From the IMG/VR virus record IMGVR_UViG_3300008108_000264: a DNA stretch of 64,000 nt; one strand, 5' to 3'. The notes under the pieces are model-generated. The model was not told the origin of the DNA, ran no database searches, and saw only the letters and a program-made list of their open reading frames with translations. The DNA comes from an uncultured virus (IMG/VR IMGVR_UViG_3300008108_000264). Taxonomy: Duplodnaviria; Heunggongvirae; Uroviricota; Caudoviricetes. This document shows, in pieces, positions 7,806 to 42,701 of this stretch. A program made the position numbers and the translations under genes. The first letter of the stretch is position 1. Every line of letters starts with the position of its first letter.

Positions 7806-10800
7806 ATGACAGAGCCAGAAATTAATAATTATGATATAAACATCCCTGGTATACTTAGTGATGATTATTTTGAAAAAATGAATTATGCTCATAGTGTAAA
7901 TCCTGAAGGTAAATTTAGTCCTACATTTATAACAGGAGATCGTTTAGTAACTGAAAATTTAGATTTAAAACCTTATCAAAAATATTTAGGTGAGCATTTA
8001 TTACCAAATCAGGATCTTGATTACTTAAGAGCTGAAGCACAACCTTGGACAGAAGAAGTAATGAATGGTTTATTTAATCTACCAGGTTCTATTGTAGGTG
8101 GACTTATTGAAAATGTTGGTTACATGGGAGCATTGGTAACTGAATGGGGTGATGATAGAGATTATAGTAATACTTTTACAGAAGCAGGTAAAGGTCTTAA
8201 AGATTGGTGGAAAGCCAATGCAGGTGGTGAAATATATAGAAAAAATCCTAATAAAGTATGGGATCCAATGGATACTGCATGGTGGGTATCACATGGTGAA
8301 GGGCTAGTTGAATCTGTTGGAGAATTTCTTATTACAGGTTATGGTATAGGTTCTGCATTAGGTAAAGGTGCAGGATTACTTGCTAGTACTGTAAAAAGTG
8401 CTAAATATAGTGCTGCTGCTACTAGAGCTTTATCAGGAGCTGCTCAAGTTGGTACAGCTGCTACATTAGCTTATACTGAAGGTGCAATGTCTGGTGCTCA
8501 AATATATGGAGAAGTTTATAAAGAGCAATATGAAAAACAATTAGCTTTATCAGGTAATCAAACTGAAGCTGCAAAAATAGCTAAACATAGAGCTGCTCAA
8601 GCTGCTGCTACTACAGTTCAAATAAATACAACTATTAATACTCTTTTAAATATTGGTTCAGTTGCTCCATTATTTAGATCTAAAGATTATTTAGCTACTA
8701 ATTCTGTTAGAGCTGCTGGTAAAAGAAATGCTCAAAACATGCTTGAAGCTACTACAAGACAAGCAGGAGATCAAATGGATGATATAATTGCCAGAACTTC
8801 TAACTTACAATGGATGAAAACATCTGGAAAAAAATGGTTAGCTGGAGAAACTATTAAAGAAGGTTTTGAAGAACAAGTTAACTTGTTTGCTGAACAATCA
8901 GGTAAGCGAGTAGGAGCAATGAGTGATAAGGAATTTGCTGAGTCAGAGTATGATAGTTACTTAGGTTACTTTAATCAATTTAAACAGTTAGGTAATTTTG
9001 CTAAAGATGTATTTACAGAAGAAGGTGCACTTAATTTTGTATTAGGTGCATTTGGTGGTTTTGCACAAAGTGGTGCTATGCGATATCTTGCTCCTGTTAA
9101 AGTAGTAGAAAGAAATGAACAGACTGGTGAAATGATAAAGAATGCAGATGGTACTCCAAAAATGAAATGGACGAGATCTATAGTAAATGAAAGAACTCAA
9201 GAAAGAATTGCATTTAATAGAATGCAAAATTCTGTAGTAGGAGATTTAAAAAGATTTAAAGAACTATCTACAAAATTAAATAATCTTGTAACAAGTACAG
9301 ATAATAGTATAAGTCAAGATGAAAAAGAAAGGATGATTGAAGATGTACGTCAAGAATTATTTGATCTTGAGGCTTATAGATCTGTAAGAAATGGTACAGC
9401 TGATTATTTAAAAGGTACATTTGAATATATTGGTGGTTTAGATAATACTACACAATTAGGTAAGAATCAAGAATATATAGATAAATTAGAAGGTATAAAA
9501 GCTAGAATTGAGGAAGAGAATCAAAAGCCTGATGGTGAAAGAGACGATGACAAAATAAAATTAATGAATGCTACTAAAGAAAGATTAGAAGCAGCAATGC
9601 AAAATCCTCAAATGACACAAGCTATGTATGAGGGTTATGCTGAAAAACCTAATACTGATAGTCATAAAAAAAGATCTGAAATTGCTATTAAGGAAATTGA
9701 TAATTATACTAAGATGTATCATGATGTAATGTCAAGGTATAATTATGGTGATGAAGAAACTTCAGGATTAGCTGAAACTTTATTTAATTTAAAACTAGAA
9801 AATAATACTAGAAAAAGAAAATTAGAAAGGAATAAACAAAAAATTGAAACTTATAAGAAAAAAGTTCAAGAGAATATTGAAAGTCAATTTGGTGATTTAG
9901 ATCTTTCATTAGCTGATGCTGTTTCAATACAAGCAGAAATAGAAGCTCTTGAGCAAGAGTTATCTGAAATAGATGATACTGCTGATGATATTATTGCAAA
10001 GAAAAGTACTGATCAATATACATCTTATGTTGATAGTTTAATGAAAAAATATCCTACTATAGTATCTGAAGGTAAAGCTAGAGGTAAAAGTAAAAAACAA
10101 ATTGAACGTCAATTAATAGAAAAAGAAAGATATAATGTTAGTAAACAAAAAGAAAATATAAATAATAAAATATCAACATTAATTGATAAGAAGTATCAGA
10201 AATTAAAAGAATCTTTTGAGATAAATAAAGTTAAAGATTCAGAGTTTATGGCTCTTGTTTATGCCACGAAATCTGAAGAAGAACTAAATAAAGAATTAGA
10301 AGACTATATCCAGAAAAAAGAAGAGCAACTTAAAAATTTTAATACTCAATTAGATAATGAATTAGTTAAATATTATAGACTAATAAATCAAGATGAACTT
10401 GATATTCAAATTCTTATGGAAGAATATACTAAGTTATCATCAAGTATAGGTAGAAAAGAATTTGTAGAAAACGGTAAAGCTTTTTTTGAAAGAATTAAAG
10501 CAGTTGAAGCTAAGAGACAAGAAGAGCAGAAAAAAGAAGATGAAAAAGCTGAAGCTAAAAAGCAAGGTTATTTTACTATAGAAGAAACAGCTGATGGTAA
10601 ATTTGGTGTATTTGATAAGAATGATAAATTAATTGAAGCATTTGATACTGAAGAAGAAGCTATAGCTAAAGCTGATGAGTTAAATAAAGAGATAGAAGAA
10701 AAGAAAAAGAAAGATGGGGAAGAGGCTGATGATAAAACAGATTATGATTTTAAATATAGAGGTAATGGTCAACAACATAATAAGAACTTAGAGTTTTTAA

Positions 10801-13800
10801 ATTCATTAGCAGATGAAGGTACTGAAGAAGATGTTGATGAAGATGCTGACTTAGATAAACAAATACAAGCATTAGAAGAAGAAAAAGCAGAAGCATTGTA
10901 TCCAACAGAACAACCTGCTTATTTTCCTGATAATAAACCTTGGAATCAAACTCTTGAAGGACTTTATCAATATTTACAAAATCTTAAACAAGAAGCAGGT
11001 AATCCTGGTGCAGGAGCAAAATTAGTTATAGATTTTGGAAACGTTGGGGAATTGGAGTTTAGTTTATTAACTATTTCTTTTCCTGTTAATAACAGATATG
11101 TTACAATAGAAAATGGAAAATATAAAATAGAATCTGATAATAATACACAAGTAGAATTTGGAGAAGAAATGTCTCCAACTGAAGGTATATGGTATAAACC
11201 TAAACCTGCATCTAATCATAATTCAATAGTTGAGTTTTATGATAACAATGAATTTTCAATAATTTTAGATGAAAAAGTTATTGGTAGAATTTTAAATATG
11301 GACCCAGGTATACTGATGTTCCCTATTATAAATGATGAAACAGGAGAAAGAATAGATAACCAAAATCCAAGTGAAATTATAAGAAAAATTAAAAGTGGAG
11401 AGTATGTAGTTATACCTGGTAGATATGAAAAAACAAGTGATGGTAAAAATAAACTTGTAGAAAAAATAAAAATTGTTAAGAAACAAGAAGGTCAAGAACA
11501 AGTTAAAACTAAATCTATTGAAGAACAAAAAGCTGAGATAGAAAGAAGAAAAAAACTATCTGGATGGATTGCATCTTATGAATTAGCAAAAATTGCAAAA
11601 GAAGAAGGTGTTGATTTATCTAAATTATCTAGAGAAGAATATGCAGAATATGCTATTAAAAACTATTTAAAAATAGATGATACTCAACTTAGAACTAATC
11701 CAAAACATAGAAATGCTACAACTGTACAAGAAGTTGGAGATATTATAAAAGCAGATAGAGCTTCTTTAACAGAAGAAACTAAAAAAGCATTTGATTCATT
11801 TTATAGAGCAATGATGGCTATTGTTAATAAGCCTCAAGCAGAAAGATATTTAGCTCAAAGTGTAAGATTATATTCAGGTACTAAAGATTCTGATTCTTGG
11901 TTATATTTTGGCATAAATAATGGAACAAATACTAATGAAAATTTTACACATAAAAGTTATTTTTCATTAAAAGATCTTAATGATTTTTCTCCAGAAATGT
12001 TTAAAGACTTTATGATTGAACTTCAAAAAAGAGGTTATAATGGTGATGTTAAAATATTTCAAGATTTAGAAGTTCAAGGTCCATCATTAAGTGATCAAGT
12101 TGTAATGCATGGATATTCAGAAGCAGATGCTAAACTAGCATTAGAAGTAGCTAAAGAATTTTATGGAGATAAAATATTAGAATCATCGTATGGTAAAGAT
12201 GAAATTATAAATGGTAAAAGTAAATCTTATAGTCAAATACTTTCTGATAAAATTAAAAATGAAATTGATTCTAAAAATGTTGATGAAGAATTAGCTGCAT
12301 TAGAATCTCAATCTGAAGTAGATCAAGAATATCAAGACTTTATTAATGGTATTATTACTGGTGAACGTATTAAATCAATAGGTGAAAAACTTGCTACTAA
12401 TAGAACTAACGAATTAACTGATTTTGAAAATCAGATATTAAAAGATGAAAAAGGAAAACAATTAATAGATGAATATTTAGCAAAAAGAAAACAAGCTGAA
12501 GATAAAAAAGAAAAGAAAAGTGAATATACCGCAAAAGAGTTTATACAAAAATATTTAAATTATGAATTTAAAGATGATAGTGGTAAAACATATAAATTAG
12601 AATTCTTAGATAAGTATTTAGATTTTCTTAAATTAGCAGATGCTAATAATACTATCATTAGAGTAATTAACGATAAAAATCAACAAGGTAAAATCTTTGC
12701 TCAAGGTAATGTTATTACTATTAATGTTTATCATTTTAATGATCAATCTCAAAAACTTATTATTGATGATAAAATATTAAGTGAATTATTTGTACATGAA
12801 ACTATACATACATTTATTGGATCAAGTTTAAAAACTAATAATGCATTCTTTAATGAGATGAAAGGTTTTGTTTTAAGTATGGGTAATTCTAATGACTTAA
12901 CAGAAGCTCTTGATGGTATTGCTGATAATATTAAAGCTCAAATTAGACAAGTTAATAAATTAGAAGATAGTCCAGAAAAAGTAAAAAAACTTAATATTTT
13001 AAAACGTGCATTAGAATCTATAAACTATTCTAAAAACACTATTCTTGATAAACTAAAAGAATATGAAAAAGATAAAGTTAAAATTTCTCCTGAGGCTGCT
13101 CTTAAAAACGCAGAGGCTTTAGGTCTAGAAGAGTTTATTGTTTTAGCTTTATCTGAACCTGAGTTTGCATTTTATTTGAATACAGTGCCATCTGATAAAG
13201 CTACAGAGGATGGTCCTAGTATGTCTATGTGGCAAGTACTTAAAAAGATATTATTTAAAATACTTGATGCTGTATTAAATAATAAAAGTAGATTAGCAGA
13301 ATTAAATAATATGCTTGATAGACATTTAGCTAAAACAGCTAAAGGTTTAGATTTAATTAATATTCAAGAATATTTTGATTTAGGATACATACTTGATAAA
13401 GGTATATATACAATTAATATTGGTACAGAGGTTAGAGATATTGTAATTCTTGATATGGAAGGTGATAATATTATATATACTTTTCCTAATGTATTAAGTG
13501 ATCCAAGAATAAAATATACAATGTCTAAAGAAGAGTTTTATAATAGTGATCCTGTATTAAATGAAAACTTTAGATTTGAAGAATTTATAAATCAATTAAA
13601 TAATTTAGAACTTACACCTGATAACTTTCAAAAAGAATTTCAAAGATTAAAAGATCAAGTATTATATGATCATCTATCTATAGATACTAAATCTAAAATT
13701 GATGAAATACTTGATAGTATACAAGAGCAAATTGAAGCTGATATTAAAGATGATAGATTAGATAATTTTGCTGATCAAATTGAAAAGAAAAAGTTAATAT

Positions 13801-16800
13801 CAGAAATAGAAGGTATATTAAATAACGCATCTACTGAATTTGGTATTGATAGTGATCAGTTTAAAACTTTAAGCAGAAAAGCTTTACTTAGAATTAAAGA
13901 AATATCTGATAATATAAATGATATTCAAAATGATAATTTTATTAAACTTGCTAAGTTAACTGAGTTTAGTGATTCTTTTAAACATATCTTTACAGAATTA
14001 GAAAATATAAAAGAGGTTTTAAATAATAAAATAATTGAAACTATAAAAGATAAGTTATCAAAAGAAACTAATTTAAATATGTTACTTCGCATAAGAAATA
14101 ATTATTTAAAAGGAGTAAATAAATTAAAAGATGCTTTTAATAACGAAGCTAATAGATTAAAAACACAATTAAATGATGATGATTATGAACTTCAGTTAAT
14201 TATTAATTCTACTAATTTAGATAATATTGAAGAGAGATTAGAAAGAGAATTTATATCTAGATTGTCTGATGATGATATTAAAAATACATCTGGTGTAAGA
14301 TATGCTCAAATTATTAAAGATGGTAAAGTTAATAGATACTTATATACAATAAAAGGAATTACTGAAAATGGTTATTTATTAGAAGATGGTAATAATAAAA
14401 TATTAGAATTTTCATTTGATGAAGTAATTGATTTATCTGAAAAATCAGCTTATTATCAAGGGTATTCTAATAAAGAAGAAATTTTTGATGAAGATTATGC
14501 TAGATCTATCTTATTTGATTCAGTAAAAATAAATAGTAAAACTTATATTAATGATCTTCTTAATCATACAATTTTAAAAAATTTAACTGTATTAAGATTT
14601 CCTGATAATCCATATGATATTGCTAAATCAATAGCATTAATATTAAATAATATACCTAATGATATAATTGACCTTAATAATAAAAAGAATGATGATATTA
14701 AAAAATTACTTAAAGAATTAATTATTAAAGCTGCTGAAAAAACTGAATCTGGAAATTATAAATTAAATTCAGATCAAGTAGAAAAATTAGTTAAAGAACT
14801 TTCAGATAAGTTAATAAGAGATCCTCGTTTTGATAGAGAACTAAAACCTATTAGTGGTTCAAAATTATTTAGTTCATTCCTTAATAGTTTAAGTGAAGAA
14901 CAAAGACAAAAGACTAACTTAGGAGGTAACATTAGAATTTCTGTTAATGTTTCAACTAGAGCTAATAAGCTTAAGGATAAAATGAAAAGTACATCTAAAG
15001 ATAACATAGATGAAAAACTTAGACTAGGTTTAATTAAAGCTAATACTACTAAAAAAGAAGCATTTGAAAATAATGAAGAAGTAATTGGTATTCATATGTG
15101 GGAGGACATCTCAGTTGATTATGAAATTAATGTAGCTAGAGAAGGTGCAAAACCAAACTGGGTTAGAATAGGTAGTGCTAGAAATCCTTATGCTTATAAA
15201 GCAATTAAAAGAGGTATAGGTGGACTTAATTCAACTGAAGTAGTTAGGAGTCCAGCTCATATATATTTAGAATATAGTAAAGAAACTAATCAAGATGAAA
15301 AGAATAAACTTGTTGATGAGTTTAATAATTTATATTCTGTAAACAATCAACCTGTAGATAATGCTACATTTGAAGCAATTGGTAAATCATGGTTAAAACA
15401 AAAGAAATTATATGATGCGTTAAGTAAAAAGTTTAAAGAACAAGGTGATAAAGGTTTTACTATTGAAGGTGAAGAGTTAAGTAACATAATGTCATTCTCA
15501 TTTACTGGTGGTAATTTTGATTTTGTTAAAAGACCTGATTCAAGAAAAACATTAAATCAAATAGCTAAAGAAGATAATAATAATGTAGAGTTATTTAAAA
15601 TAGAAACTGAAGATGGTGTAAGAGAATTTGCTGTTGTTGATTTAGGTGATACTAAAAAATCAGAAAAAAGTAGAAGAGATATTTATAATACTGTAGATGG
15701 TAAATCTATAGAAGGCGTTAGCCGTTATGACTATTTAGATATTAATCAAAAACAAAATTATGGTAGATATTGGTTAGTAATGAAAGATGTTACTGGTCAA
15801 CTTAGATTCTTATGGTTAAAACCTAGAAAAGCTAAAACTACTGATTTAAATAAATTTACTGATTCTATTAATAAAAGAGTTAATGAGTATAATGAAGGTA
15901 AAATAAACAAGAGTCAATTAGAAAACTTTGTTAGAGATGAATACAGAAAAAGTATTTATTTAGCATTACCTGCTTTACCAGAACTTAACTCCATTAATAC
16001 ATTCTTAAATATTGAATTTAATAAAGATGGTAAAACTTTAAAAAAAGATAAAAATGGAGCATATGTATTTAATTTAAAAATAGATCCTCAAACTCCTAAC
16101 TTAAGTCCAACTCCAAAAATGTTTGTTAATAATTTAAATTTAACAGATGGTTCATCATTTATAAGTAGTTTATTTACAAATAGTAAAATAGCGTTAAAGA
16201 ATATTAATACTAATTTTATGGCTATTACTGAAGATAATATACGAATATCATTTGATCAATTTGAAGATATGGATAAATCAAAGATTCAAGATTTTATAAT
16301 GGATATATTTGAGATACCTGTTAATTCTAATATTTATAGTACTAATAGATTATTAACTAATATTTCTGATGATATTACTTTAGAACAAGAACAAGAAGAA
16401 GAATTAGAATTTGAACAAGAGGAAGAAGATGATTTATTATCTAATTTAACTGAACAGGAAAAAGAACTCTATTATAATTTAATGCAAATTGATCCTTATG
16501 CAGCTAATATAATTAATGCAACTAAAGAAGATAATTTTATAACTAATGCTGGTAATATAACACCAGATAACGTTAGTAAAAAATTAGGAATAAGTAAAGA
16601 TCAAGCTAAAAGAAGTTTACAATTATTAGTAGATTCTGGATACTTAATTAAGAGTGGTAAGTATTACAAGTTAAATGAAAACTTTGGAATAGAAGAAGAA
16701 TTTGAAGCTAAAGAAGATATAATTCCTGAAGAAGATTTAAGTTTAAACGAAATTAGAGAAAAACTTTTAAATTTAGAATCTGATAAATTTTTAGGTAGAT

Positions 16801-17045: not shown

Positions 17046-17050
17046 TAAAT

Positions 17051-17082: not shown

Positions 17083-17102
17083 CTTTTTATAAAACCTAAC
17101 TA

Positions 17103-29117: not shown

Positions 29118-29128
29118 ACCTTTTTATA

Positions 29129-32100: not shown

Positions 32101-35100
32101 TTGTTAGTAATGGCATTTCATTATCTTCACTTTCGTATAAAGCTATTCTAGCTTTACTATAGTCAAATAAATGAGAAACATCAACTGATATATTATCATG
32201 GTCAAAACCGGCATATATTTCTTCTTCACTAGAAGTAAAAATATCTATTTCGCTATCAAGTTCTATTTTAATATTAGTTGATATATTAGATAATTGTGCA
32301 TCTGTTACACTTTTAAGTAAACTTCTATTTTCAATATCTCTAGCAAATAAACTAATAAAAGAATTTTCTATTTCTTTTTTACTCATTCCTACAAGATCTT
32401 GAAGTCCTTCAATCTCATCAGTAGATTCCCAAACATTATTACGTAAAGCAGTATTAACTTTTTCAAGAATATCAGAATAATCTTGATAAATTTCTGCTGG
32501 TAAATATTTAATGAATGATGAATTTTTAAACTGCATACCATCTTTAACTATAGTATAATAGAATAAATTATCAGCAAACTGTCTAATTTTACCATCAGTA
32601 CTAGACATAAGTTCACGGAAACCGTTAACAATACGTTTTCTAAGATCAGGATCAATCTTCTTACGAGTATCTGCAGTAATTAAATCTAAGTTTATAGATA
32701 TACCATACGGGTTATTACTAAAAAGATTAATATCATCAGAAGCTATTTTATTAACTTCAGATCTAATAGTTTTAATAAATATATTATTTTTAATTGCATC
32801 AGATACATTAGGATCAGAATCATTTAATAAATCTTCTAATTGTTGTGACAAAGTTTTACTTAACATTTCATTAGGTAGATTAGGATCTACTAAATTAGTA
32901 TAAAGTAATTCAGGACCAAATGGAACTCTTTCACCTCGTCTTACAAATGAATTTCTATAAGCATTTAAAGTTAAGAATGATGATAAATCTTTCTTAATTT
33001 GCTTAAGACTATTAGCTCTATCTTTAATACCTAATCGTAAATTTTCAACTATTTTGTTGAATACTCCATCAAAGAAATCAGTTTGACTGATAACAAATTC
33101 TTTACTTATTTCATTTATCTTTAAAAAATGAATAAGCATTTGTTTCATATCTTGATTTTCTTCTAATACATCTTGAATATCATATATAGCATTTGAAGAT
33201 TTAGATAACTTTGTATAGTAAGAAGAACCTTTTAATAAAGCTTCTGTATCTATTTGGAAAGTATCAATCATATCCCACAAGTTTTGTAACTCATAGAATG
33301 ATGATGGTAAACCTTGATTCAAACGTAATAAAGCATTAATTGAAGAAAACGTTTTAGACTGTTTTTGTAATTTATCAAAAGCTTTAATAACATGACTTTG
33401 AGTAACTATAGCAGAATATAATTCTTTTAGTTCATTTAAGTTTTTAATACTTTTAGCTTTATCAATAAAACCAGTCGTTGTTTCATTTAAATAATCTATA
33501 CCTGAATCTTTAAAAGTTTTAATTGAATTAAATAACTCTAAAGAATTTAAAGATATATCATCTAAATCTTCATTTTTTAATGATTGAGTTTGAAGTTTAA
33601 CAAAATCTGTAAATGACATTTTGCTATTATTATAATTAACAGTATCAAGACTTTTATCATTTTTAATAGCATTTAATATTTCATTTTCAAGAGCTGCTCG
33701 AATTTCTTCATACTTCTTCTGAATAGTTTTAATTTCATTTAAATTTTCTGCATTTCTTATATCATCACTAGACATAACTGCAGAAGTTTTAGATGAATTC
33801 AACTTATTAAATTCATATAAAGCAGGTTGATTAGCTAATAACATTGATCTGTTTGTACCAATACCTAATGACATTAAATATGTATATGTACCTAATGTAT
33901 TAAGACTAAGGTTTAATTTAAACGCATCACCATGTTTAGCATTATCTGTCATTGCTGCTAATAATAAAGATATCTCGGCCATTATCCTTTTATCTTTAAA
34001 TATTTTAGGTTTACCCTCTGCATCAACTTCAAGATTAATTTGATACTCACCTTCGTCAGTAAGAACAATATTAAAACCTATATCTTCAGATTCATAAGAA
34101 CTTAAATTATCATAAGTTTTACCATCAAAAATAATTGCAGATTTAGTCATATTTGTTTTTGAGCGAGCTAGTACAGCTTTAACAATGTTAGTAATAGCAA
34201 CAGGACCAATAAGTTGAGCACCAAGTTTATTAGCTTCCTTTGCTTGCATTTTACCTTCAGCACTATTGTATAAAAAGTCATCAATATTTCTTCCTGTTAG
34301 TAGTAACATAGTTTTAGATAATCCAATATTTGTACTATTTTCTTTTCCATCACCATGAAACGGTTCTAAATCAGTAGATTCATATCTAACTTTATCCATT
34401 CCAGAATTTAAATATAGTAAACTTACCATATCTACAATTTCATTATTTATAGCAGAGTTATTTAATCTCTTATAGTGAGGATGATTTAAAAACTCTTCTA
34501 GTGAAGAAGGTAATTTATTCATCCTCATTGCTATTAATAATGCTTGTAAATTATAAGTTGATACTAATTTTTTCTGTTCACTAAGTAGTTTAAAAAGTTC
34601 AGCAATACGTTGATTTTTAGGTTTTACTTCTTCTATTAATTCATTACGAGCATCTCTTACAGACTGCAATTGATTCCATTTCTGATTTTTATTTCTAGAA
34701 ATGTTAACTGCACTATCGTATCCTCGTCCTTCTATAACAGAATTTCTAAATTCTCTTATTGTATTTTTTGCTTCTCTATAAATTTTTGTTTTTAATTTAT
34801 AATGTTCTTTACTATTAGTTAATTTAACGTTAACACCTTTATTATTAATTGCATTCTTAATTTTTTCACTTAAGATTAAATTAATTTCAGATGTTACTTT
34901 TTCTAACTCTTTAACAACTGGATACTTTTCTTTAAGTTTAGCAGCTTTATCTTTAATTTGACTTAATTGATAAAGAGCTTGTTCAGCAATTTTTTCTCCT
35001 TTTTCTGTTAAGTTTAACATATCAACATATGATTCTAAACCTTGTCTGGTAGTATCATTAATTTTATCAGTATTAGATAATGAATTAAGTATATCAATAT

Positions 35101-38100
35101 ATTTACTGAAGTCATCATTATTAGGTTGTTGTTCTTCTAAGTAATCAGTATACTCTTTAGAACTTGATAATTCCCATTCTTGTTTTGATAGTTTACTTAA
35201 CTCATCATGTTCTTCTTTACTAAATCTTTTAAATATATTATTTGCATCACTAATAAATCTTGTACTTTCATTATCAGGTAATGAATTTAATTCGAAATCA
35301 ATGTTAACATTTAATAAATTAACAGTTTCTAAATCTGATTTAAAACCTATATATTCATTTCTAAGTTTTTCATCTTCTTGTTTTAGAAGTTTAATTTCTT
35401 TACCTATTTCATCAGCTTCATTCCTAATAGTTTCTAATTCAGTTCTAAGCTCTTTTACAAGCTTATCATTTTCATAAAATACATTTACACCTTTATATTG
35501 TTCTCCAATAAGTATAGCTTTAGCTTCTTCTAAATCAAATCTAACATTTGAATTGTCTTTAGCTATATGCTTAATATACTCTTCAAATAAATGCATATTA
35601 AGTATTTCATCATCGGATATTTCAGGAAGATTATTAGGATTATACATAGATCTTAATTCTTTAATAGTATATTCTCCATATACATGGAAATTAGTGTTAC
35701 CTTTATCATCAGTAGTAGTATAAAAATCTTTAAGTAATGTATACTTAGAGTCAATGTCAAAGTCCTCACCGGAGAATACCACTGTCTCTAAAGGTAATAC
35801 TGCAACGTCACCTAATGCAAGAGGAAGAAAATCGACTACTTTAAAAGAAATCATTGAACGTTTATCCTCAGTAGGAATACGAGTAGCAAACATTTGAAGT
35901 ATAGAATCTATAGCTTTTTTGTTTGTTTTATGTCTTCTGTAATCCTCTTCAGTAAGCTTATCACTAATAGCTTTAAACTCTTCTAAAGTTTTATAATCAA
36001 TTATGTCATTAGACTTTAGATTAAATATTTCTTTAGACCATGCTGGCATCATTACTTCAGAAACACTTGCTTGTTTAACAGTAGATAATAAAGATCTAAG
36101 TTTAGCATAATTAACTGTTACATTAGGATCAGTTTCTTCTAATTCTGTATAAGGACTAAATATATTTGTTAATATATATTCAACATCAGATTTAAATTCA
36201 TCAGATAACTTTTCAGTATTTGTACCTTCTCCACCTTCTCTATTTCCAGCAATGTTAATAGTTCCATGTGGTACTTTAGAAAGTAACTCTCTTAATTCTT
36301 CATCAGTATTAAAATCTTTTCCATATAAGAAGAAAGGTTTTCCATGTTTTTCTGCAAATTTTCTAGTAGATATTAAACCTGCTGAATCTTTAGCACCTTC
36401 TGAAAAATAAATAGTAACATCAGAATTAATTACATTTTGTTCTGTACGAGCATTATAATAACTAGATCCTTTTTTAGATTTAGGATTTTCAGCATCATAT
36501 CTATTTTGTAATTCATCTGATATTGCTACTACACCAAGTTCTTCAGCTAATTTTTTATTAGCGCCTTTACCTTTTTCATTACCAAAATCAGATGTAGTTG
36601 TACCACCTATTTCTAAACCTCCTATTTCTTTAGCTAAAAGAAGACCAAGAGTATCAATACCAGTTTGTAAACCAGATATTACTTTATTAACACGAACTTT
36701 ATACTTTTCTTTAATAGGTTTTTTTGTTCTAGAATCTATTAATAAAGATGTTTTAAGTCTAATGTATTCTCTAAGTAATTCATTATTACGTGATAAAAAA
36801 ACTAACATGTTATTATCAAATACTTCATCAGTAACTTTTTTATCATTAAGTTCATTTATAATTAAGTTAAATAAGTCAGAAGATACATCATCTTGAGTTA
36901 TTAATTTATCACCTATTCTAAATCCTTGTAATTGATCTGATTCACTCCATCTAAGTCTTCTAGTCTTATATTCTTTTTTAAGACTCCATTTACCTGTATC
37001 TTTATTTTTCTCATAATACTTTTCAGGATTCTCATCAATAGATAATCTTGTAATTACATTATCATTTTGATCAACAATAACTTCATTACCATAATCAGAT
37101 ATTAATGATACTTTTCTACCTGGTACTACTTGTTGTAATACATTCTTAGAGAAATGTGCTAAAAATTGCTGTTCAAACTTTTCAGCAATAGCAGGAATAT
37201 TAAAGTTATATTTACTTGATTTTCCATCAACACTAAATTCTCTAAAGAAGTCAAGTAAGACTTCATCTGATCCACTATTTAATAGTACTTGTTTAATCTT
37301 CTTTTGAAAATTAACCATATCTCTTTGAAACTTACCATCTCCATCAAAGTAACCTAATACAGAAATAGCATGTTCAACAGAGTTTCTTACTCTATCTGTT
37401 AAAGCTTGACGATACTTTTTAACTACATCACTAATCTCATAAACTTCTCCTCTAATAGCAGCCAGTCTACTTTTATCTTGTTCATTATCAATGATCTGTA
37501 AAAGTTGTGACATAAATGTAATCTTAGTTTTACCAGAAGGAGTTTCTACTTGTAGTCTCCAAAATTCATTTTTACGTTTAGATGTATTATAAGAAAAATC
37601 ATGATAGCCATTAACATCAGTAGCAACAACAGGAGTAATAAGTTTAGATGCAGATTTAGGTAGTACTTCATCAATACTATTTAATTGCATATTTACTCTC
37701 ATGTTATGTAATACTTTGTGATTATCTCTAGGTTCCCATAATGTTTCATATTCATCCCATAATCTTTTTACTTTATCTTTAACATCAGAATTATTTTTTC
37801 TAAATCCAACAGAAGCTTCTAATTCTTTAATCTTAGATTTAAGTTCATTAGCTTTAGCTTGATTTTCTTTTGGTAACCATGATGTTAGTTCTCTTATTAA
37901 TATAGCATAAGAAAGTTTATGATATATTTCTCCATCAAAATAAACACCCTTAACAGAATTAAATGTAGCATTTAAACTATCAAGTTTTTTTAATTCGTCC
38001 CAAGTTAGTTTTTCACCAAACCTAATCTTATCAATTATAGGTTTAATGGAATCTCCTAGTTTACCATTTCTCTTTAAAATAAAAATAAATCTATCAGTAC

Positions 38101-38854
38101 TCATATGAGCTTGACCATCATCTCTATTTATCTTTTCTTTTTTACCTGTTACAATATCATATTCTTGTTCCTGTTCATCTCTATAAGCAACAGTAAATTC
38201 TCCTTGACCAGCATTAGGACCAAAAGCTAGAGAACCAGCATTACGCTTAACAGCATCTGTTTCGTTTTTACGGATACGAGGATCTTTATCAATTAGAAGA
38301 TTATAAGATAATGAGTTAATAAAATCATTAAAATAAAAATCACCAATAAAGTCTTCTACGTTCTTATATTTATTTTCATCAAATGGTACTAAAAGATTAT
38401 CAATTTTACCATCAGTTGATTTACTAATTATTTTATAACTAGATAATCTATTATGATAATTATTTAAATCTTTAGTAAACATTTCACGAATAGCATCCTT
38501 TATCTCTTTTTCTATTTGAGTAGGACTATTTCTTTTAATTGTAGCTTCAAGTTTTGATTTTTTATTTAATTCATCTGGTGTTAAATCTTTTGTCTTTTCT
38601 AATAACATCATGTTTGCTAGTTCTTTACGAGCTTTAACATAAGATTTTAAATTATTAGAATATTTCATAAGTTCTTTAAAATTCCATAAATCAAAACCTC
38701 TACCTACACCTTTAAGTGAGCCATCTTTATTTCTTTTTAAATTACCTTTACCATCAGTTTGTATATGAAAATCTTCATATAGAATAGGTCCAGTATAACC
38801 TTCAGATAGAATATTTTTTATTTCCTGTTTTCTTTTGATATCTTCACCTTGTAG
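29129..38854 (-). CDS. Virion-packaged single-chain two-barrel DNA-dependent RNA polymerase, main part (track ORF to 38668; frame open to 38854)
   Basis: RIPTEDKRSM followed by catalytic GEDFDID (35750-35764), as in crAss-like phage RNAPs; also AAMTDNAK. Contains an inserted SLOG-like domain and a C-terminal ASCH-like segment. Confidence 0.9.
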   Translation of the reverse strand, partial: LQGEDIKRKQEIKNILSEGYTGPILYEDFHIQTDGKGNLKRNKDGSLKGVGRGFDLWNFKELMKYSNNLKSYVKARKELANMMLLEKTKDLTPDELNKKSKLEATIKRNSPTQIEKEIKDAIREMFTKDLNNYHNRLSSYKIISKSTDGKIDNLLVPFDENKYKNVEDFIGDFYFNDFINSLSYNLLIDKDPRIRKNETDAVKRNAGSLAFGPNAGQGEFTVAYRDEQEQEYDIVTGKKEKINRDDGQAHMSTDRFIFILKRNGKLGDSIKPIIDKIRFGEKLTWDELKKLDSLNATFNSVKGVYFDGEIYHKLSYAILIRELTSWLPKENQAKANELKSKIKELEASVGFRKNNSDVKDKVKRLWDEYETLWEPRDNHKVLHNMRVNMQLNSIDEVLPKSASKLITPVVATDVNGYHDFSYNTSKRKNEFWRLQVETPSGKTKITFMSQLLQIIDNEQDKSRLAAIRGEVYEISDVVKKYRQALTDRVRNSVEHAISVLGYFDGDGKFQRDMVNFQKKIKQVLLNSGSDEVLLDFFREFSVDGKSSKYNFNIPAIAEKFEQQFLAHFSKNVLQQVVPGRKVSLISDYGNEVIVDQNDNVITRLSIDENPEKYYEKNKDTGKWSLKKEYKTRRLRWSESDQLQGFRIGDKLITQDDVSSDLFNLIINELNDKKVTDEVFDNNMLVFLSRNNELLREYIRLKTSLLIDSRTKKPIKEKYKVRVNKVISGLQTGIDTLGLLLAKEIGGLEIGGTTTSDFGNEKGKGANKKLAEELGVVAISDELQNRYDAENPKSKKGSSYYNARTEQNVINSDVTIYFSEGAKDSAGLISTRKFAEKHGKPFFLYGKDFNTDEELRELLSKVPHGTINIAGNREGGEGTNTEKLSDEFKSDVEYILTNIFSPYTELEETDPNVTVNYAKLRSLLSTVKQASVSEVMMPAWSKEIFNLKSNDIIDYKTLEEFKAISDKLTEEDYRRHKTNKKAIDSILQMFATRIPTEDKRSMISFKVVDFLPLALGDVAVLPLETVVFSGEDFDIDSKYTLLKDFYTTTDDKGNTNFHVYGEYTIKELRSMYNPNNLPEISDDEILNMHLFEEYIKHIAKDNSNVRFDLEEAKAILIGEQYKGVNVFYENDKLVKELRTELETIRNEADEIGKEIKLLKQEDEKLRNEYIGFKSDLETVNLLNVNIDFELNSLPDNESTRFISDANNIFKRFSKEEHDELSKLSKQEWELSSSKEYTDYLEEQQPNNDDFSKYIDILNSLSNTDKINDTTRQGLESYVDMLNLTEKGEKIAEQALYQLSQIKDKAAKLKEKYPVVKELEKVTSEINLILSEKIKNAINNKGVNVKLTNSKEHYKLKTKIYREAKNTIREFRNSVIEGRGYDSAVNISRNKNQKWNQLQSVRDARNELIEEVKPKNQRIAELFKLLSEQKKLVSTYNLQALLIAMRMNKLPSSLEEFLNHPHYKRLNNSAINNEIVDMVSLLYLNSGMDKVRYESTDLEPFHGDGKENSTNIGLSKTMLLLTGRNIDDFLYNSAEGKMQAKEANKLGAQLIGPVAITNIVKAVLARSKTNMTKSAIIFDGKTYDNLSSYESEDIGFNIVLTDEGEYQINLEVDAEGKPKIFKDKRIMAEISLLLAAMTDNAKHGDAFKLNLSLNTLGTYTYLMSLGIGTNRSMLLANQPALYEFNKLNSSKTSAVMSSDDIRNAENLNEIKTIQKKYEEIRAALENEILNAIKNDKSLDTVNYNNSKMSFTDFVKLQTQSLKNEDLDDISLNSLELFNSIKTFKDSGIDYLNETTTGFIDKAKSIKNLNELKELYSAIVTQSHVIKAFDKLQKQSKTFSSINALLRLNQGLPSSFYELQNLWDMIDTFQIDTEALLKGSSYYTKLSKSSNAIYDIQDVLEENQDMKQMLIHFLKINEISKEFVISQTDFFDGVFNKIVENLRLGIKDRANSLKQIKKDLSSFLTLNAYRNSFVRRGERVPFGPELLYTNLVDPNLPNEMLSKTLSQQLEDLLNDSDPNVSDAIKNNIFIKTIRSEVNKIASDDINLFSNNPYGISINLDLITADTRKKIDPDLRKRIVNGFRELMSSTDGKIRQFADNLFYYTIVKDGMQFKNSSFIKYLPAEIYQDYSDILEKVNTALRNNVWESTDEIEGLQDLVGMSKKEIENSFISLFARDIENRSLLKSVTDAQLSNISTNIKIELDSEIDIFTSSEEEIYAGFDHDNISVDVSHLFDYSKARIALYESEDNEMPLLTTIYKSGLLDQIDNKNLYEIFEKFLDSQEQKSIRKLIGYSNKNEFNNILSKEKNISNTEVAKKVKSELTSVINPIVKNTPFNGVYDKNGLVIGLEFPLFFVMEKQPPRPDFDNMTEEEQIAYEKRKIEYETFVLVSFDGMPSDVKDKVTLDELEEKNKYKYKGRKAVYVKVDNIHTSIYNYLYTPQEYKHLMLRLVEMQKKVIAPLSQLLNKDGVKADIQLDSLTQIGEVFAESKDSFAYNLEMTENPQLPGGSLLKVVEDFKKDGDTTNSFSKSEEKLLSKRMFGNERYKLINDSTLSVNLLSDSDKNHLKNENVLIKPVTNKDVLSKLDLKIGETALITINNVVYKVTSKGVTTPYDIVSQLGLDKKNIKSELSPFISEYNNDMNNWLGYDRTSDEYLPFKGKSTQIYQIQPYYEKEVSKVLENRNRPNYGVKEVITVFSDNLSNLKLHGLQIVDEVNTEGFIPKVAKLYMEKSPNIVVVFDNGSSETQASINIVVNNNVEEVADKVTNAQKGLFVIDTKGNMDEQIQDLKNFFIVNNIPNVYNKVMIIKSKNDNSDYTSYIKSALTNELQSVGLSQNLSVYFTVTKITNDLRKLGYLVKPDDILSKGTIDVLPSLLTKSEDGKKLYTYILQNADKIKAESDMYIRSRTVLSDKTESDLQNIVKKTRITKTLPHNMKHIEPDRNGLSMSPMRDDLVSQNIKTTYDAIISFLRTQTSRKFADISDMSVGEIVKITSKGRAPIYVKITNISDKSVNELLSEDYAKLGLKYDPNNLKIKDLQKSEYARNWSKKQGWDISYMMLNMDSIKDKYDVDFEYIPNIDQYARDTNQTITDNKFGFVINDEFGYNKNKALNANGFIGYTDVKSIKSKVNDYLRSASNQGIATNDNIIADSSSQIFVAVPANNTMSEDVKKKIINKAIEILNANGTLLMNNLVRANNEYNISGEGVILKELYERFNNLTATNVVNYTEYSLSNFEKDLETDGQVNKDCK

Positions 38855-41800
38855 CTAATTCTAATTGTAAGTTAAGTCTTTCTTCAGAATTATTTTGTCT
38901 GCTCATAAAATCTAATAAAGACTCTATACCTTCATTTAATTCATTCTCAACCCTATCAATTAAACTTATCTCAGATAACAATAAATCAAATATTGTATCA
39001 ACAGCAGAATCAGTCATACCACCATTTTCTAAATCAAAAAACTTATCGTTATTTCTTACATTATTAACAGGTAATTGTATAGCTTCATCAGTTGATTTAG
39101 TTTCAAATATTTTAGGTATAAAATAAGAGGACTCAACTTCTGTAACTAGACCAGCTTCATTTTTAATCTTTTTAACTTTTCTTTCTTTAAATAAAGTTAG
39201 TTGAAGAAGATTAAGAGATTTAAAGTCAATTGTTTTTGATGTAACACCTTTACCTTCTTTAGTAGTAGACCTACTAAAACCTTCAATAATTTTACCTTTT
39301 TCATCTCTAGGTTTAAGAGGCGTTTGTCTTAAATCACCTGTATTCTCAAATTTAAAATCTTTAAAAATAGACTCAGTCATAGCTTGAGTACCAGAAAGTA
39401 AATAGTTATTTTTAACTGTTCCAGGATATTTAGCTGCTAATTTATCTCTTTTAGCTTTATCTCTAAGTCTTCGTGTAGCAACACTCTGATAAGATTTTAA
39501 TACGTGAGAGTATCTTTGATTTTGATTAGCATCTTGAAAACTTGATTCAGTAACAGTTTCATCAAATAAAGCATTAGCATTAGCTATCTTTTTAATAAAA
39601 CCTAATACATCTTCTACTTTAGTTTCTGTTTTATTATTTTCATCTAGATATTCTCTATCAGGAAATGGTATGTAAATATTACGATATTCATTAGGATTAA
39701 TTTGAAACTTACTTGAATCTCTACCTTGTTCTCTTAATTTTTGAACTTTAAATTCATAATAATTTTTAAGATCAGTAACTTGTTCGTCACTTTTAAACAT
39801 TATTTTTTTAATCTGATCTAAACTATTTTTAGTTAAACCTTCTGCAATTTTATTTTCATCTTGAGATTTAACTAATAATTCTTTAAAAGAAGTATAAAAG
39901 TTTTGATCTTTTTTTGGTATTAATACTTTAAATAAATCAACATTTTCATTGTAAAAATTATCAAGAATACTAAAAATGATTAAACCTTCAGATAAAGTCA
40001 TTCCTGTAAGTTTTTCAAAACTAGGTATATTTAATTCTGTATCTTTTTTCTGTACTTTAAATCCTTCATTAAACTTTGTAATTACATCTTTAAATATTTT
40101 TTTATATTCAACTGAATTACCATTTGCATTTTTAATTAAAATTAAAGAATCTTCAAAAATTAAATCTTCTAAAGCTTTAAAATATCTGTCATACAACGCT
40201 CTTTGTTTAGGATCATTTAAAATATCACTTAATTTATTATTATCCCAATTTGCATACCAATCTTTTATCTGTACTTGATCTACATCTTCATTAAGAGCAT
40301 TAATTACTATACTTTGTCTTGTATCTGAATCAATAAGTGTTTGTAAATAACTTAATTTTTCTTTATCAAAAGTAATTCTAAACAAATTAACTAATTGATG
40401 TTCGTTATCATATTCATCAGAATTATGTTTAGTAATTTCTTTAAGAGCTTGATAAACAGCTCTGGACATGTCATTTCCATATTCAACAAATTTTTCAAAC
40501 TCATCCATAACATCAGTAAAGTCTTTTGATGCTAATGATTTTATCAAACCATTATATACTACAGAACCATCTACAGATTTAAATATTTTTCTACCTGTAT
40601 ATTCATCTTCTACTTCATAAGTAACAAGACTCATAAATTCTCTTAGCTGATTAGGAATCATATCAAATCCACCAATTTCAACATTAGTGATATCTAACAT
40701 CTCTCTATTGTCAGCTTTATTCTCATCAAAGTAATCATCATCAAAAGGATTAAAATTAAATAACTTATATTTATCTTTTAATCCATCTAGTATTACATCA
40801 ATGTTATGTTTATTTTCTTCATTATTAACATTGAATATTTCTTGTATTTTTATTAATTCATTATACTTTTTATCAGCAGCAGCATCACCTTTTTTCTCAG
40901 CTATAATATTTATTATTTCTGAATTCTCTTCACTATCAGGATTATAAAAATTAAACCTTTCTTCCATTACTTTATTAAAAACAGTAACTATATCAGGTTT
41001 AACATCAGATTGATCCTTACGTATTTCATGATAAACTAAAGCAGCAATATCACTAATTATTTTGTCAGTCTCTTGCTCTTTTGCGTAAACAATGGAAAGT
41101 GCTCCATTTTTATCTAAACCTTGATTATCCAATATGATTAATTGGAATGCTGGAATTTGTCTCATTTGTCTAACGAATCTATTAGGTGTGATAGTTTTAT
41201 TTTTAAACCTTTGATTGTTGATGTCATGAAATAAAGCGTCAACTTTACCTCTAACACCGATTAACTTAAGAAACGCGTTCATAAGTCTATTAAACAAATT
41301 AACAATTGATAAGTTACTAGTAGATGGTTTATTAGTTTTAGTAAAAGCTTGATATCTATCAGCTAAATACTCTTCATAAACTAACTGTTCTAGTTCTTGT
41401 TTTGATAAAGATTCATAATTACTTACTGAATCTCTTAACTTATCAATCTTATCATTAAGCTGTTTTTCAGAAAGATTCATTTCTTTCCTAGCTTCATTAA
41501 TATATAGATCTATTTCATTATCATTTAAGAACATTCTAAATACAGCATGAAATGCTTCATGATATTCTGTACCTTGTTCTGCAGCTTTTTCATTTAGGTA
41601 AATTAGATTATTAAAAAATAAACCAAATGGAACACCAGATACTTTCATGTTATCCATAACAGTTTCAATATCAGTAGATACTTCAACAGCATCTCCTAAT
41701 ATAGCTCTAATGTTTTCTTTTGCTTTATCTATTTTAATTCTAGATTCTTCAGGTGCAGCTTGTGGTTGTAAACTAAATGGTAACGCTTCATAATATGGAT

Positions 41801-42701
41801 CAATTAATTTAATAAGAACATCTATTTCTCCATAAAAATCATTAATATCAAATTTAGTAATAAATTCTTCTAATGCTTCAGAATAAATATTACTATTTAA
41901 TAATTGTAACATACCTAAGTATACATTAGTTTTATTACTACTTAATAATAAATCAGTTACAGGTTTAATTAAATCATTATCAATTAAACCGTTAAGAATA
42001 GGATAAATTTTTTCTTTAAATCCATCTTTAGAAACAGAAAAATCACTTGATCTAATATATTGAAGTAAAGGAAGTAGTTTAGATCTTATTAAATTTTTAT
42101 CTAAGTCATTAATAACAAGATTATATTCTTTATTTATTATAAAAGTAGTTGTTTTACCTTCTTTAAAGTTATTATATAAAGGTAAATTATCATTAATAAA
42201 AGATCGTAAATTTTTATCTTTTGTTACAGATGCAAGTTTATAAAAGAATTCATTAACAAAATAATCATCAATAAATGTATCTGGCGGACCATATAAGTTT
42301 AAATAAAGTTGACTTAAATCTTGTACATCTATTATATCATAACCTAAATTAATAAAATTATATTTTAGATTATCTAAACTTTGTTGATAATCATCAGTAA
42401 TATTAATCCATAATTTATTTAAAATTAATAATGATTCTTTATTATTAAGTTCTAAAAATTTATTAATTGTTTCTTCTAACATTGGAAAATCATCTGAATT
42501 AACTAAATTTTGTACCATACTCTCTGAATTATTAAAGTTTAAGTATAATTTAGCTGCTTCTTCTTTTAATATAATAGGATCATTAATTGTATCTGAAAAA
42601 TGTTCTACATATTTATCAAAGACTTTTGATGGCCTACCGAATGGATCTAATACTTCTACTATTTCGTTAGTATTAGGATCTCTTTTTATTTGACATATCA
42701 T
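38844..42701 (-). CDS. N-terminal part of the virion RNA polymerase polypeptide, with zincin (HEAFH) domain
   Basis: TEYHEAFHAVFR...YEEYLAD; overlaps the open frame of the RNAP by 11 nt. Confidence 0.75.
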   Translation of the reverse strand: MICQIKRDPNTNEIVEVLDPFGRPSKVFDKYVEHFSDTINDPIILKEEAAKLYLNFNNSESMVQNLVNSDDFPMLEETINKFLELNNKESLLILNKLWINITDDYQQSLDNLKYNFINLGYDIIDVQDLSQLYLNLYGPPDTFIDDYFVNEFFYKLASVTKDKNLRSFINDNLPLYNNFKEGKTTTFIINKEYNLVINDLDKNLIRSKLLPLLQYIRSSDFSVSKDGFKEKIYPILNGLIDNDLIKPVTDLLLSSNKTNVYLGMLQLLNSNIYSEALEEFITKFDINDFYGEIDVLIKLIDPYYEALPFSLQPQAAPEESRIKIDKAKENIRAILGDAVEVSTDIETVMDNMKVSGVPFGLFFNNLIYLNEKAAEQGTEYHEAFHAVFRMFLNDNEIDLYINEARKEMNLSEKQLNDKIDKLRDSVSNYESLSKQELEQLVYEEYLADRYQAFTKTNKPSTSNLSIVNLFNRLMNAFLKLIGVRGKVDALFHDINNQRFKNKTITPNRFVRQMRQIPAFQLIILDNQGLDKNGALSIVYAKEQETDKIISDIAALVYHEIRKDQSDVKPDIVTVFNKVMEERFNFYNPDSEENSEIINIIAEKKGDAAADKKYNELIKIQEIFNVNNEENKHNIDVILDGLKDKYKLFNFNPFDDDYFDENKADNREMLDITNVEIGGFDMIPNQLREFMSLVTYEVEDEYTGRKIFKSVDGSVVYNGLIKSLASKDFTDVMDEFEKFVEYGNDMSRAVYQALKEITKHNSDEYDNEHQLVNLFRITFDKEKLSYLQTLIDSDTRQSIVINALNEDVDQVQIKDWYANWDNNKLSDILNDPKQRALYDRYFKALEDLIFEDSLILIKNANGNSVEYKKIFKDVITKFNEGFKVQKKDTELNIPSFEKLTGMTLSEGLIIFSILDNFYNENVDLFKVLIPKKDQNFYTSFKELLVKSQDENKIAEGLTKNSLDQIKKIMFKSDEQVTDLKNYYEFKVQKLREQGRDSSKFQINPNEYRNIYIPFPDREYLDENNKTETKVEDVLGFIKKIANANALFDETVTESSFQDANQNQRYSHVLKSYQSVATRRLRDKAKRDKLAAKYPGTVKNNYLLSGTQAMTESIFKDFKFENTGDLRQTPLKPRDEKGKIIEGFSRSTTKEGKGVTSKTIDFKSLNLLQLTLFKERKVKKIKNEAGLVTEVESSYFIPKIFETKSTDEAIQLPVNNVRNNDKFFDLENGGMTDSAVDTIFDLLLSEISLIDRVENELNEGIESLLDFMSRQNNSEERLNLQLELATR

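Follow-up and report, generated by a model that had tools for sequence, protein, structure and literature searches.

Why would a phage strip its largest proteins of almost every cysteine and keep the few that remain right beside the chain ends? The question is raised by IMG/VR record IMGVR_UViG_3300008108_000264, an uncultured virus of the Caudoviricetes, of which we analysed a stretch of 64,000 nucleotides (the window, by which we mean the whole stretch). Between positions 7,806 and 42,701 it encodes three giant proteins, namely protein A, an RNA polymerase (RNAP) chain and protein B. Comparison with their relatives leads us to favour the answer that head-to-tail disulfides probably join A, the RNAP chain and B in the particle. 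According to the listing of open reading frames (ORFs) and their translations, a plus-strand run of five ORFs is followed by the gene for A, on which the minus-strand genes for the RNAP chain and B converge:

896-7804, plus strand: five consecutive cysteine-free ORFs (180, 819, 351, 296 and 608 amino acids) upstream of the first giant gene
7806-17045, plus strand: giant protein A, 3079 amino acids, first segment of the proposed chain, of the phi14:2 gp67/p-crAssphage gp45 family (blastp)
38844-42701, minus strand: N-terminal 1285 amino acids of the RNAP polypeptide, starting M-I-C-Q, which is kept in relatives
29129-38668, minus strand: C-terminal 3179 amino acids of the RNAP polypeptide, middle segment, with a penultimate cysteine and tblastn matches to crAss-like RNAP genes
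17103-29048, minus strand: giant protein B, 3981 amino acids, last segment, its C-terminal part of the phi14:2 gp65/crAss001 gp49 family (blastp)

Every ORF of at least 150 amino acids in the window was translated and its cysteines were counted. A has one cysteine, at residue 3076 (codon 17031-17033) in the ending KGCPKG, and B has one at residue 3 (29040-29042; MAC). The 3179-residue ORF has one at residue 3178 (29135-29137; KDCK) and the 1285-residue ORF one at residue 3 (42693-42695; MIC). The four giant ORFs therefore hold 4 cysteines in 11,524 residues, each at most four residues from a chain end, in agreement with a preliminary description of this DNA that had counted four in about 11,500 residues, all terminal, and had placed all four codons exactly. 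The same description had called the putative cargo ORFs at 1428-7804 cysteine-free and many cytoplasmic genes cysteine-containing, and both statements held: ORFs 1428-3887, 4046-5101, 5107-5997 and 5978-7804, and also ORF 896-1438, contain no cysteine in their combined 2,254 residues, whereas the other 27 ORFs contain 71 in 6,856 residues (1.04%), with a cysteine in the first 12 residues of 2 and in the last 12 residues of 1 of the 27. At that rate 119 cysteines would be expected in the giants. Under simple null models, the probability of finding none in 2,254 residues at 1.04% is about 6e-11, and that of four uniformly placed cysteines all falling within four residues of an end is likewise about 6e-11. 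Neither the depletion nor the placement at chain ends comes anywhere near what chance would give. A cause at the nucleotide level was considered and dropped, as the codons (TGT or TGC) lie at varying distances from stops and starts without a common motif; the two that flank the spacer between the RNAP gene and B (TGC and TGT) have no nucleotide motif in common.

The preliminary description treated the RNAP polypeptide as a single protein with cysteines at residue 3 and at the penultimate position. This is correct for the intact chain, but in the window the polypeptide is split into two ORFs. The upstream ORF ends at TGA 38844-38846, and the frame of the 3179-residue ORF is open, with no start codon, for 62 codons back to the same TGA. 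The break can be described as follows:

38668-38855, minus strand: frame break in the RNAP gene, with 68 nt absent at 38852 in comparison with other assemblies

One contig each of sequencing runs X3 (record 8) and X6 (record 18), which come from different studies, has extra bases at 38852, amounting to 68 nt by length arithmetic on the X6 record, and two contigs of X1, the run that covers the window best, end exactly at 38852 as a loose end. A database variant of 4,573 amino acids (P0020) has an unbroken reading frame with cysteines at residues 3 and 4572 only; its start corresponds to the 1285-residue ORF (97.9% identity) and its end to the 3179-residue ORF (99.9% identity). Compared with P0020, the window has a 27-residue indel upstream in the gene, and 23 codons are missing at the junction, with loss of frame. 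Because the X3 and X6 contigs and P0020 have bases that are absent from the window, the intact state in this strain is, as judged from these sequences, one RNAP chain of about 4,546 amino acids, and the split probably reflects a gap in the assembly at a variable position, or otherwise a variant. A recoded stop or programmed frameshift at 38844 was dropped from consideration once the other assemblies showed the 68 missing bases. Half or more of the sampled words of positions 38400-39300 occur in 11 runs (labelled lake, river, lagoon, freshwater and 'fungus' metagenome). Among four runs compared over that interval, X1, X3 and X6 contain near-identical pieces (X6 with 11 differing letters), and X4, with 8 of 30 bins covered, has short, mostly unlike pieces of that interval only.

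Since its giant proteins match crAss families and its gene layout (A on one strand, RNAP and then B converging on it) is that of crAss001 and IAS virus, the window belongs, by sequence, to a distant crAss-like phage. Residues 70-247 of A match phi14:2 g067 (E 4e-5) and p-crAssphage gp45 (E 7e-8) in blastp. Residues 3250-3967 of B match crAss001 gp49 (E 2e-28), phi14:2 g065 (E 7e-16) and the C-terminal end of p-crAssphage gp44 (E 2e-17). The 3179-residue ORF, searched with tblastn against crAss-like RNAP genes, matched 93 records with E down to 1e-7 and 27-37% identity over about 110-150 residues, and residues 355-501 of the 1285-residue ORF match the C-terminal part of crAss001 gp47 (blastp). 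Two features of the RNAP polypeptide are relevant to its identity:

35750-35764, minus strand: DFDID motif, residues 969-973 of the 3179-residue ORF (motif search)
36227-36682, minus strand: cpYpsA SLOG domain (PF12694; E 7e-12, 45.7 bits against a cut-off of 26.2)

The motif (D2363-F-D-I-D2367) is invariant in our alignment A3, conforms to the DFDxD of two-barrel RNAPs and has the same letters as 1361-DFDID-1365, named as the catalytic motif of gp66 in the part of the phi14:2 preprint available to us. Sequence comparison thus identifies the middle chain as an RNAP. Since the three proteins are homologous to phi14:2 and crAss001 virion proteins, they are most likely packaged in the virion; according to the accessible text of both reports, the RNAP-block proteins of these two phages are found in virions by mass spectrometry. 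The SLOG domain lies just before the catalytic motif, was the only Pfam family found across the giant and cargo ORFs, and also matches 3imk (E 0.009) and the 'molybdenum carrier' gene of IAS virus (gp055; E 2e-13), which is a separate protein with cysteines near both ends. The lineage appears distant because none of the four giant and five cargo ORFs had a PHROG match at E 0.001, and GenBank phages gave neither a megablast match for positions 28000-43000 nor a tblastn match for the conserved domain of B. Near-identical DNA was found in contigs labelled as lake, river and freshwater metagenomes from several studies.

The terminal cysteines are conserved in divergent relatives. Among relatives of A (n = 68), none has an N-terminal cysteine and 61 have a C-terminal one, with 12 internal cysteines in 163,262 residues; G3075, C3076 and P3077 (G-C-P) are invariant in 6 sequences. 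Relatives of the RNAP chain (n = 54; 1,989-5,320 amino acids) have a cysteine in the last 7 residues in 52 cases and at residues 3-5 in 16, with 82 internal ones in 228,215 residues, and M1, C3 and R7 of this chain are invariant in the alignment, as is C4572 in 7 sequences. When the first 1,200 residues of the RNAP chain were matched against cluster representatives, 67 further proteins of at least 2,000 amino acids were newly listed; a cysteine is present in the last 10 residues of 57 and in the first 12 residues of 7, and 66 are internal in 262,960 residues. Relatives of B are fewer (n = 18): 11 have a cysteine in the first 16 residues and 5 in the last 4, one having both and 3 neither, with 6 internal cysteines.

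To relate these cysteines to gene borders, domains were mapped with iterated hidden Markov models built from five window segments on 247 unique proteins of at least 800 amino acids and on reference proteins. D1 is the start of A, D2 the middle of the 1285-residue ORF, D3 the RNAP motif region, D4 the conserved domain of B and D5 the C-terminal part of B; P0020 took the place of the two broken RNAP halves of the window. The order D1, D2, D3, D5 was kept, and gene borders fell at differing places along it. The 231 proteins with a mapped domain have 44 N-terminal, 190 C-terminal and 181 internal cysteines in 752,167 residues, that is 4.2% per terminal position and 0.024% internally, a difference of about 175-fold. 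Frequent internal cysteines or poorly conserved terminal ones, which the preliminary description had named as grounds for abandoning its idea, were thus not encountered. N-terminal cysteines lie at residue 3 (27 proteins), 4 (8), 5 (4), 7 (2) or 9 (3). C-terminal cysteines lie 0-8 residues from the end and in 157 of 190 cases are the last, second-last or third-last residue.

It might be argued that cysteine is selected against throughout these proteins and merely tolerated at floppy ends, or that gene ends were miscalled. General cysteine suppression is indeed known in the ejected proteins of N4-like phages (PMC11445570, seen in part), and the annotated start of crAss002 gp33, discussed below, looks misplaced. 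However, this explanation is already contradicted by the C-terminal cysteine kept in 52/54, 57/67 and 61/68 divergent relatives and by the enrichment at terminal positions; moreover, mere tolerance at ends is not general, because the N4-like ejection proteins are described in the same source as virtually free of cysteine. We regard an origin by chance or artefact as hardly credible.

The distribution of terminal cysteines depends on which ends of the domain order a protein contains:

D1 and D5 both present (fully fused), n = 7: no terminal cysteine in 7 of 7
D1 without D5, n = 107: C-terminal cysteine only in 103, none in 4, N-terminal cysteine in 0
D5 without D1, n = 10: N-terminal cysteine only in 10 of 10
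Neither D1 nor D5 detected, n = 107: both ends in 29, C-terminal only in 56, N-terminal only in 5, none in 17

Proteins with the start domain never have an N-terminal cysteine (0/114) and those with the end domain never have a C-terminal one (0/17). The last mapped domain before a C-terminal cysteine is D1 (58), D2 (9), D3 (116) or D4 (5), and the first after an N-terminal cysteine is D2 (25), D3 (7), D4 (10) or D5 (2). Four small D2-only proteins of about 1,100 amino acids have cysteines at residue 3 and at the last residue, and the fully fused relatives, single chains of 4,553-5,186 amino acids that comprise the start, RNAP and end domains, are those without terminal cysteines. Since C-terminal cysteines follow four different domains, N-terminal ones precede four, and the fused forms have neither, the cysteines belong to the breaks and not to any domain, and they never mark the true ends of the order.

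We also asked how break and cysteine are distributed on trees. A FastTree phylogeny of D2 comprised 115 rows, after removal of rows with no initial methionine, a D2 start before residue 25 or a D2 match shorter than 350 residues. In these rows, starting just before D2 and having an N-terminal cysteine coincide in 21 and are both absent in 90, with the break only in 3 and the cysteine only in 1. Eight independent pairs differ in the break; the N-terminal cysteine changes the same way in 5, the opposite way in 0 and not at all in 3 (sign test p 0.0625). For D3 (126 rows, matches shorter than 90 residues dropped), the corresponding counts for lack of D5 and presence of a C-terminal cysteine are 114, 8, 4 and 0, and nearly all of five supported independent pairs go the same way (about 5/5), with none opposite (p 0.0625).

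If each break is matched by a pair of facing thiols, a link other than a disulfide could be considered, in which the ends are joined by a bridging metal ion or by other thiol chemistry. Such a bridge, which the preliminary description allowed for, would explain the same rule of breaks and fusions and would need no oxidant in the anoxic gut. Against this, each end offers one thiol, with no conserved histidine or second cysteine beside it, and in the sole solved case of this signature, that of cyanopodophage A4 (see below), the link is a disulfide. We consider the metal bridge distinctly unlikely.

The end thiols might also act without any link, through acylation for membrane contact after ejection, as a redox switch or as a processing signal, and single conserved thiols can indeed be modification sites. 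This reading does not predict facing cysteine pairs at breaks that are lost on fusion; in addition, no signal peptide or lipobox precedes the N-terminal cysteines (residues 3-9), and no Hint/intein or other Pfam domain was found at the ends. We therefore judge it very unlikely. Lipobox and prenylation-type readings were rejected on the position of the cysteines and the absence of domains. A split intein with protein trans-splicing was likewise rejected: no Pfam family was found at any giant ORF end, and with cysteines 0-8 residues from the ends there is no room for an intein half.

The preliminary description had proposed a series running from a protein with a C-terminal cysteine only, through one with both, to one with an N-terminal cysteine only, and had suggested counting cysteines in homologous triplets. 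The series recurs in cultured and reference crassviruses and in one metagenomic locus:

phi14:2 gp67, 1797 amino acids, first protein: only cysteine is the last residue (1797)
phi14:2 gp66 (RNAP), 2180 amino acids, middle protein: cysteines 3 and 2179 only
phi14:2 gp65, 1421 amino acids, last protein: only cysteine 3
crAss001 gp47, 2341 amino acids, first protein: only cysteine 2339
crAss001 gp50 (RNAP), 2412 amino acids, middle protein: cysteines 5, 1334 and 2404
crAss001 gp49, 1349 amino acids, last protein: only cysteine 5
Metagenomic locus L011, three adjacent genes: cysteine 1564 of 1571; 5 and 1482 of 1482; 8 of 1225; preceded by four cysteine-free ORFs

Together with the window (with the RNAP chain intact), these make four cases of the series, and in each of them N-terminal and C-terminal cysteines are equal in number. 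Loci L008 and L002 have one facing C-terminal/N-terminal pair each. In p-crAssphage, gp45 has a penultimate cysteine and the adjacent gp44 starts MSC. In crAss002, the only cysteine of gp32 is penultimate, and in gp33 MSC occupies residues 33-35 of the annotated sequence. Because this in-frame M-S-C matches the start of p-crAssphage gp44, the sequence suggests that the annotated start of gp33 lies 32 codons too early (L005, 15789-15890). In IAS virus, cysteines are found at the C-terminal end of gp056 and at residue 5 of gp057, and at the last residue of gp058 and residue 5 of gp055. Some gut crassviruses have an extra C-terminal cysteine, borne by one of the smaller cargo proteins or by the protein with the SLOG domain (p-crAssphage gp47, crAss002 gp30, IAS gp055). 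The B domain, used as query against viral and metagenome contigs in three scans, yielded 3, 3 and 7 loci; with so few, the pairing at the level of genomes rests on a small number of genomes.

These unpaired extra cysteines would fit a different role, in which the terminal cysteines pair with other particle proteins (portal, tail barrel or capsid) or with a second copy, anchoring the cargo and not chaining it. The parts of the crAss001 atlas available to us (PMC10172136) also report disulfides in the tail and in gp57 and estimate several copies of each cargo protein per particle, both of which suit an anchor. Anchoring cysteines need not vanish on gene fusion, however, yet they are absent from all 7 fused forms and from the true start and end of the domain order (0/114 and 0/17). 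In phi14:2, crAss001, L011 and the window they are, moreover, equal in number at N- and C-terminal ends. An anchor is therefore an unlikely account.

Head-to-tail disulfides, the reading that we prefer, would work as follows. The three giants would be consecutive segments of one conserved 'virtual polyprotein', composed of the start domain, D2, the two-barrel RNAP and the gp65-like end domain, and the gene borders that divide this order would differ from phage to phage. Wherever it is cut, a lone cysteine 0-8 residues from the end of the upstream protein would face a lone cysteine at the start of the downstream one (mostly residue 3), and with the proteins side by side in the particle the two thiols would become bonded as a disulfide. 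Protein A (3079 residues), the intact RNAP chain (about 4,546) and B (3981) would then be held in a 1:1:1 ratio as a single covalent unit of some 11,600 residues. Since each joint would lie few residues from both ends, the product would be a nearly linear thread that could leave via the tail in the order A, RNAP, B. Purging all other cysteines would prevent wrong cross-links outside the cell or in the periplasm in proteins that partly unfold to exit the tail, and reductants of the host cytoplasm would separate the parts. Disulfides of the crAss001 particle, in the tail and gp57, are in keeping with such a link. From the comparisons above and from A4 we infer the link itself, as well as a fixed stoichiometry or ejection order and the release by host reductants.

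The linear chain of the preliminary description thus gains an order-wide pattern, a rule of breaks and fusions and a structural analogue in A4, although its middle member is in two ORFs here. A narrower reading, in which the disulfide is a staple for a folded cargo assembly as in A4, fits the same data. More tentatively, and with less than even confidence, we propose that the crassvirus RNAP is delivered as part of a single covalent thread exceeding 11,000 residues, in which a disulfide replaces the peptide bond at each cut, the joint can pass the tail, the chain sets the order of entry and reduction in the host frees the enzymes. Were this so, genes could split and fuse freely, and the thread would be a redox-gated device for ordered protein injection.

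Several points weigh against disulfide chaining. The cytoplasm in which phage particles assemble is reducing, and the habitat of gut crassviruses is anoxic. The rule has exceptions: 4 of 107 start-domain proteins have no C-terminal cysteine, 3 of 24 proteins starting just before D2 have no N-terminal one and 1 of 91 fused there has one, and 4 of 118 RNAP proteins without the end domain also have no C-terminal cysteine; truncation in gene calling may account for some of them. Either independent-pairs test has too little power by itself (p 0.0625 in both), although no informative pair disagrees. At the level of genomes, p-crAssphage gp47 and crAss002 gp30 have a C-terminal cysteine without an N-terminal partner in the next gene, and IAS virus is unbalanced, with three C-terminal and two N-terminal cysteines. 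If the frame break in the window were real, this copy of the genome would give two dimers and not a three-protein chain. The crAss001 atlas, in the text available to us, did not resolve the RNAP-block proteins and named disulfides only for the tail and gp57 (PMC10172136). Finally, the link is drawn from comparison, with A4 as the one solved analogue.

How a cargo of about 5 MDa is packed, ordered and injected is described as an open question in the accessible part of the crAss001 atlas (PMC10172136), and this cargo includes the polymerase that starts infection. A conserved cysteine pair at every break of the cargo chain is a concrete hypothesis that can be tested cheaply, since virion proteomics and structures already exist for phi14:2 and crAss001. 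If true, it would explain why cysteines are purged from the giant proteins, why fused and split gene forms coexist, and how stoichiometry and ejection order are kept. It also offers a rule for annotation, by which a lone terminal cysteine marks a true gene end inside the block; with its help, starts such as that of crAss002 gp33 can be corrected and broken genes, like the RNAP gene of the window, recognised.

The remaining features of the locus are these:

17046-17102, strand not assigned: in the gap where genes A and B converge, a hairpin with T runs after it (by eye)
27516-28676, minus strand: conserved domain of B of about 390 residues (residues 125-511; alignment A1, 63% mean column identity)
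29049-29128, minus strand: 81-nt spacer from the RNAP stop to the B start, with a G+C hairpin followed by T's (by eye)

Because hairpins and T runs separate the ends of A and B and the RNAP stop from the B start, the proposed partners may be made from separate transcripts. The conserved domain of B, which shows 36-69% identity among relatives and a G-S ... H-D-x-D pattern, had no Pfam or PHROG match; its G-S ... D-x-D pattern is one that we take to be nucleotidyltransferase-like. In the giants of relatives this domain is found at widely differing positions (residue 3 to 4,170), as if shuffled along the chain. The five ORFs at 896-7804 had no PHROG and no trusted Pfam match and are, from their sequence and place, candidate smaller cargo or ejection proteins; cysteine-free ORFs occupy the equivalent position in L011, L008, L009 and phi14:2 (g068 and g070). 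Behind the giants, the minus strand encodes replication genes, including a dUTPase, an endonuclease, a 5'-3' exonuclease, a primase-like Toprim protein, a DnaB-like helicase and AAA proteins. The dUTPase ORF overlaps the following endonuclease ORF (phrog_3322, also endonuclease VII/HNH-like) at 42797-43832 on the minus strand, adjoining the RNAP gene; in p-crAssphage, according to its annotation, an intron with an HNH endonuclease splits the dUTPase. Another gene in the replication region encodes a radical SAM protein resembling spore photoproduct lyase (58053-59003, minus strand; PF20903, E 4e-25). A scan of the other window ORFs of at least 150 amino acids detected no thiol oxidoreductase.

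The closest known parallel to the proposed link is found in cyanopodophage A4 (Anabaena phage A-4L), where consecutive genes encode large ejected proteins with a lone C-terminal cysteine and then a lone N-terminal one. In the cryo-electron microscopy structure of its pre-ejectosome (PNAS 2025, PMC12002296, seen in part), gp27 Cys1715 is disulfide-bonded to gp26 Cys5, and a cleft of gp26 receives the C-terminal helix of gp27; this is the only such cysteine pair for which a disulfide has been demonstrated. Our count in the A-4L genome gave a single cysteine in gp27 (1715 of 1717 residues), a single one in gp26 (residue 5 of 1114) and none in gp29, with 6-7 in the portal and tail proteins. The window shows the same arrangement, in which the upstream lone cysteine lies few residues from the C-terminal end (A 3076/3079; RNAP chain 3178/3179) and that of the next protein within the first ten or so residues (residue 3 in both the RNAP chain and B). 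No homology was detected: phmmer with A4 gp26-gp29 against the 247 crAss-set proteins gave no match at E 0.01, and in blastp no window protein matched the A4 proteins below E 0.1. Unlike the chain proposed for crassviruses, A4 has one link and not a series, and no RNA polymerase is joined by it; its authors, in the text available to us, treat the disulfide as a contact that stabilises a folded assembly of five-fold symmetry, present neither a thread nor a general rule, and compare no fused and split forms. As a separate observation, 43 of 114 start-domain proteins (P0220-P0281 among the relatives of A) end in N-P-[FT]-x-x-C followed by 0-2 residues, and A4 gp27 ends in N-P-C-Q-F; a short proline motif before the C-terminal cysteine may be a shared docking feature, or a coincidence.

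The window is related by descent to phi14:2 gp67-gp66-gp65 and crAss001 gp47-gp50-gp49, with which it shares homologous domain families (A and B corresponding to the gp67-like and gp65-like partners that flank the polymerase), DFDID and the terminal-cysteine series. It differs from them in that its proteins are about twice as long, contain extra domains (nucleotidyltransferase-like and cpYpsA SLOG) and are broken before D2 and not after it. According to the available part of the phi14:2 preprint, some phages encode the three as a fusion, which is supposed to be cleaved into parts; our counts suggest the reverse, in which split forms would be re-joined via cysteine pairs. The same text, which does not mention cysteine or disulfide, reports that recombinant gp66 was handled in dithiothreitol and tris(2-carboxyethyl)phosphine. 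The available atlas text, which states that crAss001 cargo must partly unfold to pass constrictions of less than 50 Å, makes no mention of the cysteines of the RNAP-block proteins (PMC10172136), and a full-text search of published literature on Crassvirales found no paper on terminal cysteines in cargo proteins.

The N4-like phages also eject a giant virion RNAP and its partners, nearly free of cysteine, so that cysteine depletion of ejected giants is itself already known (PMC11445570). In the part of that paper available to us, the suppression in N4 gp50-52 and DEV gp71-73 is attributed to the avoidance of disulfides during passage through the periplasm. The polymerases of the two groups are of unrelated types (PMC13434306, seen in part), and a 2026 N4 paper does not mention cysteine or disulfide. 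Unlike the N4-like proteins, for which no terminal cysteines are described in the text available, those of the crassviruses keep a cysteine at facing ends: the window lacks internal cysteines, as does the Schitoviridae type of N4 gp50, but has four conserved terminal ones. The proposed arrangement would combine an A4-type head-to-tail disulfide with N4-type cysteine suppression and extend it to a chain of several links that includes the virion RNA polymerase; the rule of breaks and fusions that it follows is one that we did not find in print. If crassviruses do inject such a thread, A4 and other podophages not related to them may have arrived at this device on their own.

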